Source: Planctomycetota bacterium
Lineage (GTDB): Bacteria > Planctomycetota > UBA1135 > JACQFD01
Assembly: GCA_016792805.1 (NCBI GenBank)
Contig: JAEUHX010000087.1
Coordinates: 76,955 to 140,954, forward strand
Direction of reading: 5' to 3'
DNA: 64,000 bases
Below the pieces are notes generated by a model. The model saw only the letters and a list, made by a program, of their open reading frames with translations. It made no database searches and was not told the origin of the DNA. A program made the translations under genes and the position numbers. Shown here in pieces: positions 1 to 10,965 of the stretch; within the stretch, counting starts at the first letter, position 1; each line of letters begins with the position of its first letter.

Positions 1-1660
1 CGGAGACAGCAACTGCCAAGTCCACGTCACCATCCCGATCGAAGTCGGCTCCGACGGCGTCCGATGGGCTGTCCAGGACAGGGAACGAGAAGCTCGCCCC
101 AAATCCGCCGAGCCCATCGCCGAGACGCGCGACGAACTCGTTGCTCGTTCGGCAGGATGCAGCGAGATCCGTCTTGCCGTCCAGGTTCCAGTCTCCCGCA
201 ATCACGGACCGAGTATCCGCTCCCATTGCAAATGTTGCAATCGATCCGAATGCGCCGCCGCCGACCCCGAGCGCAACGGTGCTGGTATTGGTGGATCCGT
301 TGGCCGTTGCGAAGTCGATCTTGTGATCACCATTGAAGTCCGCGGCAACGATGTCCCGGCACAGCCCGCCCCCCGAAACGGTGCTGGCGATCGTGAGCGA
401 CCCGTCGCCGTTTCCGAAGAACCGATTCACAGAGGAGCTCGAAGCTGCCGCTACGAGTGCATCCTCGAAACCATCCTGATCGAGATCACACAAAGCGACT
501 CGGCTCGGGGAGGTGCCTGTAGCGATTGCAGTGGCTGAAAGAAAGCTCGATCCGCCGTCCGATCGAAATACTTGAAGATCATTGATGATGGAAACGACGA
601 CGAGGTCGGTTCGGCCGTTCCCGTCCACGTCGCCAGCGCTCACGAACTGCGGATCATTGTCACAAGGGAAACTCTTTAGAGTGGGGAACGCTCCGTTTCC
701 GGCTCCCGAACCTAAAACAAGCACATCCGCAGCGTTCGAGGTCGCCGCGAAGTCGAGCTTGCCGTCGGCGTTGGCATCCAGCAAAACGATCCCTGTAAGC
801 TGGTTCGCGGTGGAAGTGTTCTGGGAGCTCCCAAATCCCCCGATGCCATTCCCGAGCCGAGTGTATACAAATCCAGGGGAGAACGTCGCGGCCGCGGCCA
901 CAATGTCGGGGCTGCCGTCGCCGTTCACGTCGCCGGCGCTCACAGAGCTGGGCCGGTCAAATACCGAGAAATTTGTATTCGCGCCGAAGCTCCCAAACCC
1001 ATCTCCGAGCCGAACGGAGAGGTTGTCGGAGTTGAGATTCGCGGTCACGAAATCGGGTCTCCCATCGAGGTTGAAGTCCGCCGTATCGACCGACTGGGGA
1101 AGGGATCCCACGGAGAAGTTCACTCCAGGCGCAAACCCGCCGACGCCGTTCCCCAGGAGCACCGTCGCATTGTTGCCGAGCTCATTGACCGTTACGGCAT
1201 CGAGTTTGCCATCTAGGTTGAAATCACGCAGACGCACCCGCTTGGGCTTCACTCCAGTCGTCATCGGCGTGCCGACGGAGAATGCTCCGGTGCCGGAGTT
1301 CGTCAGCACGGACATGGTGTCGTTATTCTGATTTGTGAACACCACGTCGGGCGCGGAATCGCCATTCAGATCTCCGACCGCGAGCCCGCTCGGCCCGAGG
1401 CTCCCGGTTCCTGAAGAACTCACATTGGGACCGGTGAAGTTGCCGGCGCCATCGCCGGGGAAGAGATGAAGCTGTGTCGCTCCATTGCACGCGACCAGAT
1501 CGGCCTTTCCATCGCCGGTGACGTCGGCGATCACCGCTCCTGAGCTGTTCACAATTCCCGCCCATGGGAACGTTGGAGACGGGAACCGGGGCGCATTCTG
1601 CCCGAGGGCGCTCCCGCTGCATGCTGCCAGGATCGCTGCCGAAACGGAGATGTGCCGCAT
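1..1660 (-). CDS. FG-GAP/VCBS-repeat secreted protein; N-terminus in window, C-terminus runs off the left edge
   Basis: Own minus-strand translation from ATG at 1660. It starts with a signal-like MRHISVSAAILAACSGSALGQ, followed by repeated hydrophobic-x-GDxNGDGxxDhh units (VIADVTGDGKADLVA, AVGDLNGDSAPDVVF, SAGDVNGDGSPDIVA, SAGDVDGNGRTDLVV, GADFDRDGDVDLAV). The frame stayed open wherever I translated it: 1660 to ~1300, ~900-960, and continuously from 601 to position 2. Absent from the ORF track because there is no stop inside the window. Confidence 0.8.
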   Translation of the reverse strand, partial: MRHISVSAAILAACSGSALGQNAPRFPSPTFPWAGIVNSSGAVIADVTGDGKADLVACNGATQLHLFPGDGAGNFTGPNVSSSGTGSLGPSGLAVGDLNGDSAPDVVFTNQNNDTMSVLTNSGTGAFSVGTPMTTGVKPKRVRLRDFNLDGKLDAVTVNELGNNATVLLGNGVGGFAPGVNFSVGSLPQSVDTADFNLDGRPDFVTANLNSDNLSVRLGDGFGSFGANTNFSVFDRPSSVSAGDVNGDGSPDIVAAAATFSPGFVYTRLGNGIGGFGSSQNTSTANQLTGIVLLDANADGKLDFAATSNAADVLVLGSGAGNGAFPTLKSFPCDNDPQFVSAGDVDGNGRTDLVVVSIINDLQVFRSDGGSSFLSATAIATGTSPSRVALCDLDQDGFEDALVAAASSSSVNRFFGNGDGSLTIASTVSGGGLCRDIVAADFNGDHKIDFATANGSTNTSTVALGVGGGAFGSIATFAMGADTRSVIAGDWNLDGKTDLAASCRTSNEFVARLGDGLGGFGASFSFPVLDSPSDAVGADFDRDGDVDLAVAVS

Positions 1661-1753
1661 AAGCCCCTCAATCCGGCCCCAGCGCTTTCCGTTGCAGCTG
1701 CGGATCAGAGCAGCCCTCGGAGGCCTTGCCCGCTGCCGAGCTGGCGCGGATCA

Positions 1754-1905
1754 GGAGGACGATTCAAACATGCTCCGCGAAGCGAGCGCGAGGACTCGTC
1801 GCCCAGCGCGAGGAGCCTCGCGTCAGGCGTAGCCAAAGAGTTCCGTCGGGGACGAGGCGACGGTGCTGCGATGGGCGACGAGGCCCGCGCACAGCTCGGA
1901 TGACT
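1754..1905. repeat. Left arm of a ~150-bp inverted repeat flanking the 1920-3380 CDS
   Basis: Hand alignment of 1754-1905 against the reverse complement of 3441-3589. Both start GGAGGACG(A/T)TTCAAA and end CTCGGATGACT. Roughly 80-84% identity with three small indels. Confidence 0.85.
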
Positions 1906-1919
1906 CGGGGAAGTCCGTC

Positions 1920-3380
1920 TCAGCCTTGACCGACGGCCTCTTCGAAGCTCTTTCGATACTTTTCCATGAGCTTCGTGTCGCGCCGGATGCGCTTTTTCTG
2001 GTCAGGCCGAAGCGTGGAAACGCAGTGCTCTTGGAACTCGAGCTGGAAATCGCTCCACTTGTCGTCGCTGTCGAGCCCGAAGATCTTCTCAAACATCGCG
2101 CCGGGCATCTCCCCGCTGTGTTTATTGAGCTCGCTCTTCAGCCAGTCATGGAACTGCTTGCGATACTTGCCTTCTTCATAATGCTGGAGGAAATGACACA
2201 GCGCCCAGCCGATGGAATAGGTGCCGCTGAAGAGATCGCTCGCTTTCTTTCCCTCGGCGCCGCCCACCTTGCTTTCGAGCGTCGCGCGGGCCGTCCAGAA
2301 TTCGAGATACGACATCGTTGCGATCTCCCGCATCGACGGCTTGAGCTCAATGAGCTCATCCATCGTGGAGTGATCCACCTTCTCGAGGCCGAGCGCCATG
2401 ACCGCCTTGACGCGATCGATTTGCGGCAACCCGAAGAAGTAACGCCAGCCGTCAGGCTGCTTCTTGTCGAGCAGGCGGTCGTACCCCGAGACGTACTCGG
2501 CGAAGCCCTCCTGCATCCATGGTGAATTCGTAAGATCGAACCCGCGGCCCGGAGAGTTGAAATCCATCAGCTGGTGAGTTCCCTCGTGCCAGGCTGTCTC
2601 TCGAATCGACTCGATCTGGTCGCCCGTGAAGCTCTTGTTTTCTTGAGGATCCTGAAGCCATAAAAACAGGAATCCAGAACGGTTATTTTTCTCCGTGCCC
2701 GAATAGAACGCCCCCGCGGTCGACGTGGAGGGTCCTGGATTCCCCGAACGGCGCCACCGCTCGTATTGGCCCTGAGAGCGGAAGACCCACACCGGAACCG
2801 GCGTGGTGTCAAGCGCCCTCAGCCCGGCGACCTTTGAGTAACGTTCATAGAAAGTCCTGAAGAGGGCGCCGAAGATCTCGCCGAAGCTCTCGGCGTACGA
2901 TTCGGTCCGCTTGGCTCCGTCTTTCTGAATCGCCAACAAATAGGGCCGGGGGACGATCTTCGTACCCTTCGAGTCGCCGTTGTAGAAGAACTCGAACTCG
3001 CAGGGCTTGGCGTCATCGGGGTGTGTCGCATCCGGATCCGGCGGATCCTTCGGCTTGAACCCTGCCGGCAGCTTCGCGACGTTTTCCTTCGCGATGCCAT
3101 TCGTACGATCGATGAGCCTCTTCATCTCGCGGATGGTCTCGAGGGCGCCACGCGAATAGGCGTCCTTGGGCATCGGATCGGCGTCCTCGCCCTGCGCCGC
3201 GCCGGGTTGAGAAGCCGGCGCCGAGCCGCCTTGCGGAAGCGCATCTCCGGGCTGCGCCACGCTGGCGAGCAGACTTGCTGCGACGAGCGCGCTCAGCGCA
3301 GACGCGCAAGCGCCCGTCCGAAGGCAAACAGCCGGAAGTCGGAGGGAGCTGAAAAACTCGTGGGTCGACGCGTGGGCCAT
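1920..3380 (-). CDS. Secreted HExxH zinc-metallopeptidase-like protein (DUF1570-like)
   Basis: ORF 1920..3446. Contains WHEGTHQL (HExxH) followed by WMQEGFAEY, as in DUF1570/MA-clan-like proteins. Hydrophobic signal-like segment ACASALSALVAASLLASVAQ. ATG at 3380 (MAHAST...) gives a normal n-region; the distal ATG at 3446 lies inside the inverted repeat. Confidence 0.6.
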   Translation of the reverse strand: MAHASTHEFFSSLRLPAVCLRTGACASALSALVAASLLASVAQPGDALPQGGSAPASQPGAAQGEDADPMPKDAYSRGALETIREMKRLIDRTNGIAKENVAKLPAGFKPKDPPDPDATHPDDAKPCEFEFFYNGDSKGTKIVPRPYLLAIQKDGAKRTESYAESFGEIFGALFRTFYERYSKVAGLRALDTTPVPVWVFRSQGQYERWRRSGNPGPSTSTAGAFYSGTEKNNRSGFLFLWLQDPQENKSFTGDQIESIRETAWHEGTHQLMDFNSPGRGFDLTNSPWMQEGFAEYVSGYDRLLDKKQPDGWRYFFGLPQIDRVKAVMALGLEKVDHSTMDELIELKPSMREIATMSYLEFWTARATLESKVGGAEGKKASDLFSGTYSIGWALCHFLQHYEEGKYRKQFHDWLKSELNKHSGEMPGAMFEKIFGLDSDDKWSDFQLEFQEHCVSTLRPDQKKRIRRDTKLMEKYRKSFEEAVGQG

Positions 3381-3440
3381 ACAGTCCTCGCTGGGCAGGA
3401 TCGCGCACCAGGGAAGGCGCGGCAAGCAGGGCGTTTCAGA

Positions 3441-3589
3441 AGTCATCCGAGGTGCGCAAGGGCCACGCCGCCCATCGCTGCGCGGCCCCGTCCTCGACGG
3501 AACTCTTCGGCTGCGCCTGCGGCGAGGCTCCTTGCGCTGGGCGACGGTTTCTCGCGCTCCCGTTGAGGAGCACTTTTGAAACGTCCTCC
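3441..3589. repeat. Right arm of the ~150-bp inverted repeat flanking the 1920-3380 CDS
   Basis: Its reverse complement aligns end to end with 1754-1905 (see that feature). Lies between the stop of the 3606-5243 CDS and the start of the HExxH CDS. Confidence 0.85.
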
Positions 3590-3605
3590 AAGCCGTGGTC
3601 GTACG

Positions 3606-5243
3606 TCAGCCGCGCGCGAGCTGACGGACCCGCAGTAGCGCGAGCCCCGCGACCACCGCGAGGATCGCGGGGATCGCCCAGAGAGCGCTTCGGTCGAAGC
3701 GTGCGCCGAAGCCGACCCAGCCGATGCTCCCGAACGAGTGATACTCGGGAATCTGCTGAAGCGCTGCCACGGAGATCGCCCCGTCGCGATCAACGTCGAG
3801 TTCACGCCAAGGAAGTTCGCCGCCGCGAAGAAGGACCGCTCGTCCGAGCGCATGCTGCGCTCGGAGAAAGCCGCCGGGCCCCGCATCGAGGCAGAGCCTT
3901 TGGAATCGATCCTGGTCCCCCAATTTCGGCTCCCGGACAGCGGACGCCTCCATCGCCGCGGCCATCGCTGCGAATGGAGAAGTGAACGTGGCAGGCGCCA
4001 CCAGTGCACATCCCGCGAGGGCGACAGCGCCCGCGAATAGACGCCCTCGCGGGCTCCACATGTCGATCGCCAGAGCAGCGGCGACCGCCATCGCCGGATA
4101 GCCGAGCAGCGCATATCGCGGGCCGAAAGACCATGCGCCGTGCCATTCGATGGTGCGTCCGACGGAGGTCCACGCCCCGAGCGCCGAGAGAGCCAGAGGC
4201 AGAACAAGAATCCACTTTTTGTGGAGAAGGAGGCGGCCCAATCCTGCGAGCCCGATCCAGAAGGTGGGGAGCGCAAACCAGGCAACCCCTTTCGACGGCG
4301 CAAAAAGCAGCGCCGTGAATCCCAGGTGGATTGGCACATAAAACCAGCTCTCCGCCGTCGACTTCTCATATCCGGTGATCCAGGGGCTGCCCCAGCGAAG
4401 CGCGTTTGCAACAAAAAACGTGAGTGCGAAGGGAAGCGCACCGGCGGCGATGAGAACGAGCGCGCGGAGGTGGGAGCGCACGCCAGCCGCGCGCGCGGCG
4501 CAGAGAAGCACGAGCGGCGGAACCGCAGCAACAGTATGAACCTTCGTCAGCAGGCCGAGCCCGCAGGCAGCTCCGACGACAAGGCCGCGCACCGCCGTCG
4601 GAGCCGCCGCAAAGGCGAGCGCGCGCTCGAGCACAAGCGAAACGCAAAAAACCGCCTGCATGTCGGAGAGCCCCGAGCGTGCCTGCGGGAAGAAGTGAGT
4701 TCCGAATCCGAGAGAGGCGGCGGCAAGGAGCGCCGAAGTCGGCGACGCGCCGGCGCGTCGGCAGGCGAGAAACACCAGTGAAAGGGCCGCAGCCCCGAAC
4801 AGCGGCTGGAGCGCGAGCACGGCCGCCCGTGCGAAATAGTCGCTTCCGCCGAGGTGCTGAGAAGTGAACGACTGCGACGCGAAGCTCGCCGCGATCTCGG
4901 AGCAAAGGCCGTCGAGCGTTCGCCCGAGGAAGTAGGCCGGCACGCCGATCACGGAGTAAGCGATTCCCCAGTAAGGATATTGGAGCCCATTCAATCCAGG
5001 GCGACAATTGTACGCTTCACCTTTTGCCGCCGGGGTCGAGGCGAACTCCAGAATGCGCTTCGCGGAGGGCGTCTCCGGCTCCAGGTGCAGCTCGCCGCGC
5101 TCCGCAATGGCGCGAGTTGCCTGGAAGCCGACTTCGGTATCGACCTCCTCGGGAACCCAATTGGCGAAGATTAAGAAGATCGCGGCACAGAAAACGAGCC
5201 AGGCTCGCGCGATGCGCAGGTCTGTGGACGTGAGCTGCTGCAT
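3606..5243 (-). CDS. Polytopic membrane protein, GT-C fold glycosyltransferase-like (ArnT/PMT_2 family-like)
   Basis: ORF 3606..5381. The ATG at 5243 (MQQLTSTDL...) sits 2 nt after the upstream stop codon (5248-5250). Many hydrophobic spans, an acidic first loop (PEEVDTE) and a GLGLLTKVHT motif resembling GT39/GT83 enzymes. Confidence 0.5.
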   Translation of the reverse strand: MQQLTSTDLRIARAWLVFCAAIFLIFANWVPEEVDTEVGFQATRAIAERGELHLEPETPSAKRILEFASTPAAKGEAYNCRPGLNGLQYPYWGIAYSVIGVPAYFLGRTLDGLCSEIAASFASQSFTSQHLGGSDYFARAAVLALQPLFGAAALSLVFLACRRAGASPTSALLAAASLGFGTHFFPQARSGLSDMQAVFCVSLVLERALAFAAAPTAVRGLVVGAACGLGLLTKVHTVAAVPPLVLLCAARAAGVRSHLRALVLIAAGALPFALTFFVANALRWGSPWITGYEKSTAESWFYVPIHLGFTALLFAPSKGVAWFALPTFWIGLAGLGRLLLHKKWILVLPLALSALGAWTSVGRTIEWHGAWSFGPRYALLGYPAMAVAAALAIDMWSPRGRLFAGAVALAGCALVAPATFTSPFAAMAAAMEASAVREPKLGDQDRFQRLCLDAGPGGFLRAQHALGRAVLLRGGELPWRELDVDRDGAISVAALQQIPEYHSFGSIGWVGFGARFDRSALWAIPAILAVVAGLALLRVRQLARG

Positions 5244-5247
5244 CGAA

Positions 5248-6480
5248 CTACCGCGGCACGAGAAGCGACGCCGCAAGCGCGCCGCAGGCCGCGAGGCCGC
5301 CCAGAGAGAGCCCCGCCGGTAGCTCCCACCATTGGAAAAGGAAGATCGCTGCCGAAGAGAGCACCACAGATGCCGCTTCAAATCTGAAAGCTACTCTTCT
5401 CCATGCGACGGCGGCGAGCAGCAGAAGCGATGCATGGAGGACGAGCAGCCCAATGGGCGGAGTCAGAAACGAAGCTCCGGGAATCCCGTCGCGAAGCGCA
5501 AAGGACGACTCCCGCGCCGATCGCGATAGAAGCGACCAGGAGAGGACGGCTCCGACTAGCTGCAGCAGGAGCAGAAGCGTGCCTGCGGCTACCGCGGCGG
5601 GAGCGCGCCGACGCCACCCAGCGAGGGCGGCCACGGCGCCGGCGGGAATGAGAGCAGCGGCGAGCCAGGGTGAGATGCACGAGGCGCCAATGGTGAAGAT
5701 CGCGGCGAGCGTCGTCCATGCTCCGACGCCGCGGCTCTCCTCGCCCTCGGCACGGGCGATATGTGTACACGCGTACAGCGTGCCGAGAAATTGTGATCCC
5801 CCAGCTGCATCTCTTCCGAAACCGATCTCACCGGGAGCGGAGACAAGCCAGGGGCTTCCCGGTACGACGAGCGCCGCCGCTGAGCCGAGGGTCAGCACGA
5901 GCGCCGCGGCCACCGTTCGCCGGGAGGCCGCGAATCTCGTCGCAAGAAAAAAAGTGAAAATCACAGTCAGCAGAATTCCCGCGGAAGTGTGGATCGCGGA
6001 GCCGATCGAGAGGCGTAGCGGGATCGTGATGGCAGCGGCAGCGACTGCGCCTACCGCACCGACGGCGAGCATGAGCGTTCCCCCCGCGCGCCACTGGACA
6101 GATTTGTCGCGAATGGTGCGCCCCTCCCGACGAAGCACAAGAGCGAGCGCGTTCAAGATCATGGATCCACACAGAACCCAGCGAATAAGAACGTGGTCCG
6201 GCGCACTCGGCCACCTCGCGAGCCACGCCATGAGCGCCAGGGTCGAGCCGGAGGAGAACGCGACCCATTTGGCGCCATTGATCGGTTCCGGGCTCATCCA
6301 AGCGAGGAACGGAGTCCAAGGACACAATAAGAGCGCAAGGGCCCCGAGTACGGCAGTCGCCGCGGCAGCCGCAGTTCCTTCCAAACGATACTCATGCAGC
6401 AGGAGCGCAAGCGCGGCTAGCCAGGCGAATTGCGCAAGTGCGAAGCCTGCGCTGGAGGGCTTCACGGGCGCTCTCCGCAT
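5248..6480 (-). CDS. Integral membrane protein of unknown function (about 10-12 predicted hydrophobic spans)
   Basis: 410-aa ORF that is almost entirely hydrophobic/Ala-Leu rich. ATG at 6480 overlaps the upstream CDS by 19 nt. Same strand and tightly packed with its neighbours. Confidence 0.55.
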   Translation of the reverse strand: MRRAPVKPSSAGFALAQFAWLAALALLLHEYRLEGTAAAAATAVLGALALLLCPWTPFLAWMSPEPINGAKWVAFSSGSTLALMAWLARWPSAPDHVLIRWVLCGSMILNALALVLRREGRTIRDKSVQWRAGGTLMLAVGAVGAVAAAAITIPLRLSIGSAIHTSAGILLTVIFTFFLATRFAASRRTVAAALVLTLGSAAALVVPGSPWLVSAPGEIGFGRDAAGGSQFLGTLYACTHIARAEGEESRGVGAWTTLAAIFTIGASCISPWLAAALIPAGAVAALAGWRRRAPAAVAAGTLLLLLQLVGAVLSWSLLSRSARESSFALRDGIPGASFLTPPIGLLVLHASLLLLAAVAWRRVAFRFEAASVVLSSAAIFLFQWWELPAGLSLGGLAACGALAASLLVPR

Positions 6481-9944: not shown

Positions 9945-10862
9945 ATGAAACTCTTCGATCGGGCAGTCGTCGGACTGCTGCCGCTCATCCCCAAGCCGGT
10001 CGTTCGAAAAATCGCCGATCGCTACATCGCCGGTGAAACGCTGGACGAGGCGGCGCGCACGGTGCGACGGCTGAACGAAGTCGGCTGCGAGGCGACCGTC
10101 GACGTGTTGGGAGAGTTCATTACAGATTTCCGCGAAGCCGAGGAAACGGCGGCCGCCTATCACGACGTGCTCGACCGGATCCGGCAGGACAAGCTGCGAT
10201 CCAACGTCTCCATCAAGCTCACCGCATTTGGACTGAGTCTCGACGGAGCGAAGTGCTACGCGCTGGTCAAGAAGCTCGTGGGCCACGCGCGAGAACTTGG
10301 AAACTTCGTGCGGATCGACATGGAGGATTCGCCGGTCACTACGCAGACGCTCGATTTGTATCGTCAGCTTCGGCGCGACGGCTTCGAGAACGTGGGCGTC
10401 GTGATTCAAGCCTATCTGAGGCGGAGCCCCAACGATGTTCGCGAGCTCCTTTCGGGGGAGCTGACACGCGGCACGTCGTTCCGATTGTGTAAAGGCATTT
10501 ATGTGGAGCCGCCGGAGATCGCATTCAAGGATCGCGAAGAGATCCGCAATGCCTATAAATCAGTGCTTCGGCAGATGTTTCGCGAGGGTTCTCGGCGCGT
10601 CGGCATTGCAACGCACGACCCTCCCCTGATCGAGGACGCTCGAAGCCTGCTGCGGGAGCAACAGATCCCCAAGGAGCGATACGAGTTCCAAATGCTGCTC
10701 GGCGTCGCCCCCGCCTGGCGAAAGCGGCTCGTCGAGGAAGGCCACACCGTGCGCATTTATGTGCCTTTCGGAAAATCTTGGTATGGCTATAGCGTCCGCC
10801 GCCTGAAGGAGAACCCGAGCATCGCCGGATATGTAGCCAAGGCGATGATCGGCCTCGGCTAG
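9945..10862 (+). CDS. Proline dehydrogenase (monofunctional PRODH)
   Basis: 305 aa. Contains DVLGEF, SIKLTAFG, VRIDMEDS, IQAYLRRS, RLCKGIY, GIATHD and YEFQMLLGV...YVPFG...YSVRRLKENP, which are collinear with PutA-type PRODH domains. Confidence 0.85.
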   Translation: MKLFDRAVVGLLPLIPKPVVRKIADRYIAGETLDEAARTVRRLNEVGCEATVDVLGEFITDFREAEETAAAYHDVLDRIRQDKLRSNVSIKLTAFGLSLDGAKCYALVKKLVGHARELGNFVRIDMEDSPVTTQTLDLYRQLRRDGFENVGVVIQAYLRRSPNDVRELLSGELTRGTSFRLCKGIYVEPPEIAFKDREEIRNAYKSVLRQMFREGSRRVGIATHDPPLIEDARSLLREQQIPKERYEFQMLLGVAPAWRKRLVEEGHTVRIYVPFGKSWYGYSVRRLKENPSIAGYVAKAMIGLG

Positions 10863-10863
10863 C

Positions 10864-10882
10864 AGGACGTTTGGAACGTCCT
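10864..10882. terminator. 8-bp hairpin between convergent genes (weak bidirectional terminator candidate)
   Basis: AGGACGTT-TGG-AACGTCCT lies immediately after the PRODH stop codon. No clear T-tract. Confidence 0.25.
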
Positions 10883-10965
10883 CCTAGCGCCGACCCCACT
10901 TATCGACTGGGGAGTTGCTCGCACGCGCCGATGATTTGTGCGTCAGGCGCTTGCGGAACAGGGGG

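Follow-up and report, generated by a model that had tools for sequence, protein, structure and literature searches.

A 64,000-nt window of the genome of a Planctomycetota bacterium (contig JAEUHX010000087.1 of assembly GCA_016792805.1, positions 76,955 to 140,954) carries near its left end two inverted sequences of ~150 bp that bracket a single gene for an HExxH protein, and the arrangement raises the question of what such a pair represents. An earlier reading of the letters alone (the sequence-only reading) offered three answers: the arms of a long-range duplex in a polycistronic RNA, the ends of an invertible gene cassette, or two oppositely oriented copies of an intergenic element. The follow-up described here partly supports that interpretation and points to the third answer, on the strength of the termini of the arms, their separate 4-bp target-site duplications, tens of further copies in the organism, and orthologous loci that lack the element. 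The bracket very probably consists of two old, separately inserted copies of a dispersed, non-coding miniature inverted-repeat transposable element (MITE), a member of an ordinary lineage-specific family.

Anatomy of the element and its target-site duplications

The ~150-bp inverted repeat that brackets the HExxH gene is confirmed, being recovered by a repeat search of the window, blastn, nhmmer and MAFFT alike. The repeat search returns it as two arm pairs, 1754-1858 with 3485-3589 (105 nt, 84% identity) and 1851-1905 with 3441-3495 (55 nt, 76%), and blastn aligns the two arms at 80.9% identity over 152 nt (E=1.6e-36). Neither blastn nor nhmmer finds a third copy in the 64-kb window, leaving two in all. 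The identity of 80-84% and the longest identical run of 13 nt reported for the arms both hold, and so do their shared start, GGAGGACG(A/T)TTCAAA, and their shared finish, CTCGGATGACT; of the three indels counted by hand, MAFFT requires only one gap of 3 nt to align the arms over their full length. The limits first given to the arms were too short, because the units extend further on their inner sides, to 1755-1919 for the left copy and 3427-3588 for the right copy (Table 1). Over this full length, the two complete copies match each other at 78%.

What defines these units is, first, a set of imperfect terminal inverted repeats of ~16 nt (GAGGACGTTTCAAAAG). In the right copy the outer terminus, at 3575-3589, is exact, and the inner terminus, at 3426-3440, has three mismatches. 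Copies elsewhere in the organism, as seen in the loose ends of metagenomic contigs, share this design: CTCGGATGACT is mostly followed there by TTTGAAACGTCCTC(C), the reverse complement of the element start, which indicates that the full element has terminal inverted repeats, and most of these copies have the form GAGGACGTTTCAAA...TTTGAAACGTCCTC. The first G of GGAGGACG is part of the duplicated target and lies outside the element.

The second defining feature is a direct repeat of 4 bp on either side of each unit. All three units in the window whose boundaries are fixed by termini, namely the left copy (TCAG), the right copy (CAAG) and a 21-nt unit composed of termini only (CTAG), are flanked in this way. 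A 4-bp direct repeat at these spacings has a chance of 0.005 (0.5% of window positions), and its presence at three of three units is far beyond chance, even allowing for the fact that the boundary in the left copy was chosen. At the left copy, the duplication also corrects the earlier placement of the arm 15 nt short of the HExxH stop codon: the left unit abuts that stop, whose TCA falls within the duplicated TCAG. Beside the other copies, the loose-end consensus reads CTGG, CCGG, CGAG or CCAG, which suggests that the target is probably of the form CNNG.

The element is also self-complementary along most of its length. Each copy is predicted to form a long hairpin closed by its termini, with folding energies on the minus-strand RNA of -84 kcal/mol for the right copy and -70 kcal/mol for the left, and the left copy is predicted to fold as a long hairpin on both strands. 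Taken together, the properties found are those by which MITEs are recognized: a length below 300-500 bp without a coding frame, terminal inverted repeats, target-site duplications, and many dispersed copies.

Several further observations concern smaller units in the window. The recurrence of the arm start that had been noted near 10864-10884 stands in the form GGAGGACGTT, on the minus strand at 10870-10884, overlapping the 21-nt termini-only unit. The first CTAG beside this unit contains the TAG stop of a proline-dehydrogenase-like gene (9945-10862), so that a stop codon lies inside the 4-bp duplication at two of the three units (TAG in 10859-10862, TGA in 1920-1923), a pattern that could reflect either target preference or survivorship. 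Directly after the 21-nt unit, at 10887-10931, stands a separate repeat of ~45 nt (GCGCCGACCCCACTTATCGACTGGGGAGTTGCTCGCACGCGCCG). The 151-nt stretch that holds it draws 13-14 contigs per metagenome run, most of those listed covering 10887-10931, at a summed depth of ~16-21x that of the flank. One contig covers part of the MITE terminus together with the start of this repeat (10870-10911), and the letters before that stretch resemble the 3' end of a full-length MITE copy.

Dispersed copies and the origin of the pair

The abundance of the element was assessed by aligning to the locus the Logan contigs of seven metagenome runs, from bioreactors and other sources, that contain 93-98% of the words sampled from the locus. 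The locus shows single-copy depth throughout except over the two arms, where in each run 66-76 contigs fall on an arm or on the stretch with both arms. The arm-matching contigs listed lie at the organism's own depth (~8-12 in run X1, 42-57 in X2, 27-36 in X5 and 15-22 in X6). In every run at least 13-15 contigs extend beyond 1905 into flanks unlike those of the window, and the window's own contigs stop at the arm edges (1905 and 3543/3517). A de Bruijn assembly typically breaks off in this way where a sequence is repeated. At 90% likeness, the left arm has a summed depth 35-44x that of the flank and the right arm one of 24-27x; these ratios stay nearly constant across runs (Pearson r=0.99) among which the organism's depth varies six-fold. 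At 80% likeness the ratio rises to as much as 107-136x (1883-1888). Summed depth is not a true copy number, and we infer from it a minimum of roughly 20 copies, with more than 100 possible. The sequence-only reading had stated that many dispersed copies would reduce the arms to a generic repeat, and many dispersed copies are what the contigs indicate; this counts against the functional readings. Screens of genome, metagenome and viral contig collections, the first two of which lack the organism, gave no matches to the element.

Two further details of the copies deserve mention. In runs X2-X6, a Logan contig of 50,167 nt ends in the left copy and has a third MITE copy at its opposite end, ~48 kb leftward of where the window begins; this third copy is 81% like the right copy and oriented as the left copy. 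Within the element, a 35-nt subterminal segment (1871-1905) is about twice as abundant as the remainder (107-136x vs 50-69x), without listed variants, and may be a transposase-binding region or a segment common to a second repeat family.

Sequence comparison among the copies bears directly on how the pair arose. In three intervals the left copy shows fewer mismatches to copies elsewhere than to the right copy (13 vs 17 over 1796-1905, 9 vs 13 over 1824-1905, and 16 vs 19 over 1772-1883), and copies elsewhere match the right copy at 81-84%. Since the left copy thus has closer kin outside the locus than its own partner, the pair is neither a local duplication nor being homogenized. Arrival as a single composite unit is contradicted as well, by the separate duplication at each copy and by the unlike outer flanks.

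The same conclusion emerges from related genomes. Four loci in Planctomycetota metagenome-assembled genomes (MAGs) keep the gene order sulfatase, hypothetical (membrane) protein, PMT_2-like glycosyltransferase, HExxH protein. An nhmmer search of these four orthologous loci found no element (best E=1.1), and the flanking arrangement that the sequence-only reading had suggested looking for around orthologs is absent from all four. Their gaps measure 11, 139, 62 and 10 nt before the HExxH gene and 32, 76, 201 and 20 nt after it. The corresponding gaps in the window, once each element and one duplication are removed, would be 59 nt upstream and 90 nt downstream, and the empty sites expected from such removal are given in Table 1. 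The separate duplications, the dispersed copies and the element-free orthologous loci together argue for two independent insertions.

A plausible history of the locus can be outlined on this basis. The element presumably moved in trans, by means of a transposase encoded elsewhere, with each insertion duplicating 4 bp of a target that was probably CNNG. One copy would have entered the spacer, 59 nt long, that separates the HExxH gene from the glycosyltransferase-like gene. The other would have entered a TCAG that includes the stop codon of the HExxH gene, and the duplication of this target would have restored the stop. The opposite orientation of the two copies is most likely a coincidence in a genome with tens of copies confined to intergenic space. 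A family of 60-130 copies should by chance give 0.4-4 inverted pairs spaced within 2 kb if the genome measures 4-8 Mb, and the expectation is similar if surviving copies are restricted to intergenic DNA. One inverted pair in the genome is accordingly unremarkable, unless the family lies at the low end of the copy estimate.

Several points weigh against this account. With only ~30 copies, the expectation drops to 0.1-0.2, such that a close inverted pair would be met in 10-20% of such genomes, and the copy number is itself inferred from summed contig depths and is not a true count. The inner terminus of the left copy is badly degenerate, and its boundary rests mainly on the TCAG duplication. Within the part of the genome covered, no transposase and no parent insertion sequence whose ends match those of the element came to light. 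The relatives compared are distant (45-53% protein identity). An empty-site allele was not seen in the runs containing the organism, and run X8, tried as a possible relative with empty sites, yielded a 182-nt fragment of the same organism only.

Competing explanations for the bracket

The best surviving alternative grants the pair a function in RNA. According to this explanation, the stem has been exapted: the two copies would pair on a minus-strand polycistronic RNA as a ~150-bp imperfect duplex that loops out the HExxH frame, and cleavage by RNase III would uncouple the expression or stability of the gene from that of its neighbors. Co-transcription is suggested by the location of all genes on the minus strand and by the conserved gene order, and cleavage by RNase III has been documented for transcripts that contain Correia elements, which are MITEs of another lineage (PMC10969869, PMC2649163). 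Co-folding of the arms, a check named by the sequence-only reading, predicts strong pairing between the copies, with an inter-copy duplex of -254 kcal/mol against -154 kcal/mol for the two local hairpins combined (-84 plus -70), and in the minimum-energy fold of the whole 1866-nt RNA the right copy is paired with the left at 129 positions. The duplex is thus favored thermodynamically in silico; the arms, however, are neither specific to this locus nor conserved in relatives. They belong to a dispersed family, of which they are generic members with separate target duplications, and the arrangement is missing from every orthologous locus examined. Nor have the copies been kept alike: their mutual identity is only 78-81%, and each has closer counterparts elsewhere. 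Transcription, moreover, reaches the right copy ~1.5 kb ahead of its partner, so that it can form its own hairpin first, with ribosomes meanwhile crossing the intervening frame. Occlusion of the ribosome-binding site is also not expected, as 47 nt separate the element from the likely start codon at 3380 and its GAGGA.

We therefore consider an exapted stem improbable. The same low standing applies to a more specific form of the idea, in which a chance pair of MITEs has been co-opted so that the ~150-bp duplex in the operon RNA is cut by RNase III and the HExxH cistron is excised as an RNA with a stability of its own. If this were true, it would constitute a bacterial counterpart of inverted-repeat-driven RNA processing, made by mobile DNA. 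Under the preferred reading of two independent insertions, both copies probably still reside on a minus-strand polycistronic RNA, either as hairpins of their own or as a mutual duplex of ~150 bp; RNase III could cut the RNA in both forms, as it does with Correia elements. An RNase III-type side effect of the pair on the operon RNA is, judged from these predicted folds, possible. Because the arms are neither locus-specific nor conserved in relatives, any effect of the duplex would be a by-product.

The invertible cassette fares considerably worse and is very unlikely. It holds that recombination between the arms flips 1920-3426 and so switches the orientation of the HExxH gene relative to the operon, a notion for which the geometry alone speaks, ~150-nt inverted repeats standing around one gene. 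The arms, however, are only 81% identical and share no identical tract longer than 13 nt, and no recombinase or invertase domain was found in the five neighboring genes scanned, including those for the FG-GAP, glycosyltransferase-like, hypothetical and sulfatase proteins. Contig joints that link opposite strands do exist (1875-1877 to 3555-3556), but they connect non-equivalent positions of the element, the true junction being expected near 3468, and they fit other palindromic copies that were split-aligned. A further joint, 1400/3428, resolves to the single 50,167-nt contig with a copy at each of its ends. No inversion junction at equivalent arm positions appears in the contigs, although short-read contigs cannot show its absence. 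A joint that skips from 1902 to 3572 was likewise entertained as evidence for deletion and set aside, as it represents another copy with the canonical end GGATGACT plus TTTGAAACGTCCTCC.

Equally little credence can be given to a MITE-flanked composite transposon, in which both copies and the HExxH gene arrived as one unit in the manner of the integron mobilization units flanked by inverted MITEs: two inverted copies with transposon ends do enclose a single gene, yet the outer flanks differ (TCAG vs CAAG), each copy has its own pair of inner and outer duplications, and the HExxH gene occupies the same conserved order in relatives without the element.

The element was also considered as a gene, and a small-peptide reading was rejected. 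Both arms carry GGAGG followed ~11 nt on by ATG or GTG, and their single gap is 3 nt long, as a small-peptide gene might have; in the left copy, however, a stop interrupts that frame and stops occur in several frames overall, mismatches between the arms fall by codon position as 13/7/6, which is not significant, transitions equal transversions, and no frame is both open and conserved in the two copies with a coding type of substitution. A structured RNA gene is not supported: Rfam returned no match to the element, the z-scores of its folds are modest (-2.3 to -3.6), and two sequences give no usable covariation.

The host operon and comparison with known systems

The genes around the repeat, which include one for a 410-aa hypothetical protein and one for a sulfatase in addition to those in Table 1, all lie on the minus strand. 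A consensus scan found no sigma-70-like promoter and two terminator-like sites, both on the plus strand, within the HExxH gene and outside the arms. The G+C content of the window is 63%.

Table 1. Coordinates of the element copies, their target-site duplications and the adjoining genes in the 64,000-nt window
Feature	Position	Strand	Remarks
Outer target-site duplication TCAG, left element	1751-1754	.	Repeated at 1920-1923
Left MITE copy, 165 nt	1755-1919	+	5' terminus GAGGACGATTCAAAC intact; 3' terminus GAAGTCCGTC degenerate, with indels
Inner target-site duplication TCAG, left element	1920-1923	.	1920-1922 is the TGA stop of the HExxH gene, minus strand
Inner target-site duplication CAAG (CTTG in element orientation), right element	3423-3426		
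Right MITE copy, 162 nt	3427-3588	-	Termini GAGGACGTTTCAAAAG and CAGGGCGTTTCAGAAG, 13/16 matching
Outer target-site duplication CAAG, right element	3589-3592		
21-nt termini-only unit CAGGACGTTTGGAACGTCCTC	10863-10883 (with flanks 10859-10887)	.	CTAG/CTAG flanks
Empty sites expected from removal of the elements			GCGCGGATCAG joined to CCTTGACC, and GGCGCGGCAAG joined to CCGTGGTC
FG-GAP repeat protein gene, downstream	2-1660	-	PF13517, E=4e-73; runs off the window
HExxH (WHEGTHQL) protein gene, 486 aa	1920-3380	-	No Pfam family above cut-off
Membrane glycosyltransferase-like protein gene, upstream	3606-5381	-	Weak PMT / LA_3751 matches

The HExxH gene has two candidate start codons. The upstream one, ATG 3446, does lie within the right arm as had been noted, and hence in inserted DNA, making ATG 3380 the likelier start; the latter stands outside the element and is preceded by GAGGA with a 4-nt spacer. 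We regard 3380 as most likely the true start. The protein and its homologs align through to their C-terminal ends, showing that the left insertion did not truncate it. Its nearest homologs are 45-53% identical and come from Planctomycetota MAGs. The earlier label 'DUF1570-like' is faint, as PF07607 reaches 13 bits (E=0.13) where its cut-off is 22. With 486 aa and an N-terminus that resembles a signal peptide, the protein is short for its family, which has no Pfam model and in which most homologs have 642-678 aa; four long forms that were aligned have an extra N-terminal region resembling CxxC...CxxC zinc-ribbon motifs plus a hydrophobic, transmembrane-like stretch. Its last ~60 residues (1920-2100) give a sub-threshold match to Tox-REase-9 (PF15650, 23 bits vs 27.3, E ~1e-4) that is probably spurious.

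Recognition of the element has several practical consequences for this locus and organism. The MITE copies explain two unusually long intergenic gaps, they place the upstream ATG in inserted DNA and so favor 3380 in annotation, and the family breaks short-read assemblies of the organism. More broadly, the element adds one more lineage-specific MITE family to the little-known mobile DNA of uncultured Planctomycetota, one that makes 4-bp duplications and sits on stop codons in two of three units.

How, then, does the element compare with systems already described? The resemblance to the RNase III stems of 16S and 23S rRNA lies in geometry, as complementary segments 1.5 kb apart could loop out the sequence between them. 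The rRNA stems, in contrast, are specific to their loci and conserved, whereas here the segments are dispersed copies of a mobile element that are absent from the orthologous loci. With MITEs of the IS5-group type, the element shares a 4-bp duplication, a short and partly palindromic target (CTAG in one case, a CNNG-like consensus at the loose ends) and termini of ~16 nt; its termini do not match the IS5 ends known to us.

The REP/BIME families and the repeats tagged with GTAG or CGTC are likewise intergenic, hairpin-forming and lineage-specific, and the 21-nt unit, with CGTC in its stem, is superficially REP-like (PMC3733652). A tagged REP consists of a 20-40 bp stem-loop that carries GTAG or CGTC, left unpaired, at one of its ends (PMC3733652). 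Membership among the CGTC-tagged REPs was considered and rejected: the full units here measure 162-165 bp, the CGTC of the 21-nt unit is inside its 8-bp stem, and 4-bp duplications are present. REPs are not known to make a target duplication.

The closest known parallels are the Correia elements (NEMIS) of Neisseria and the ERIC elements (IRU) of enterobacteria, which are non-coding units of ~100-170 bp with terminal inverted repeats that form a long hairpin, and which occur as tens to hundreds of dispersed intergenic copies co-transcribed with their neighbors (PMC2229807, PMC10969869, PMC2649163). The element described here works like these families and, by its type of duplication, is not a member of them, a judgment made apart from any comparison of consensus sequences. 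Correia elements duplicate TA. The present element duplicates 4 bp (TCAG, CTTG, CTAG), appears unrelated in sequence, and resides in an uncultured Planctomycetota-like bacterium. Transcripts containing Correia elements are substrates of RNase III (PMC10969869, PMC2649163), and it is enticing to speculate from the predicted folds that the pair around the HExxH gene could serve as a natural test case for the creation of RNase III sites by inverted MITE copies within one transcript.

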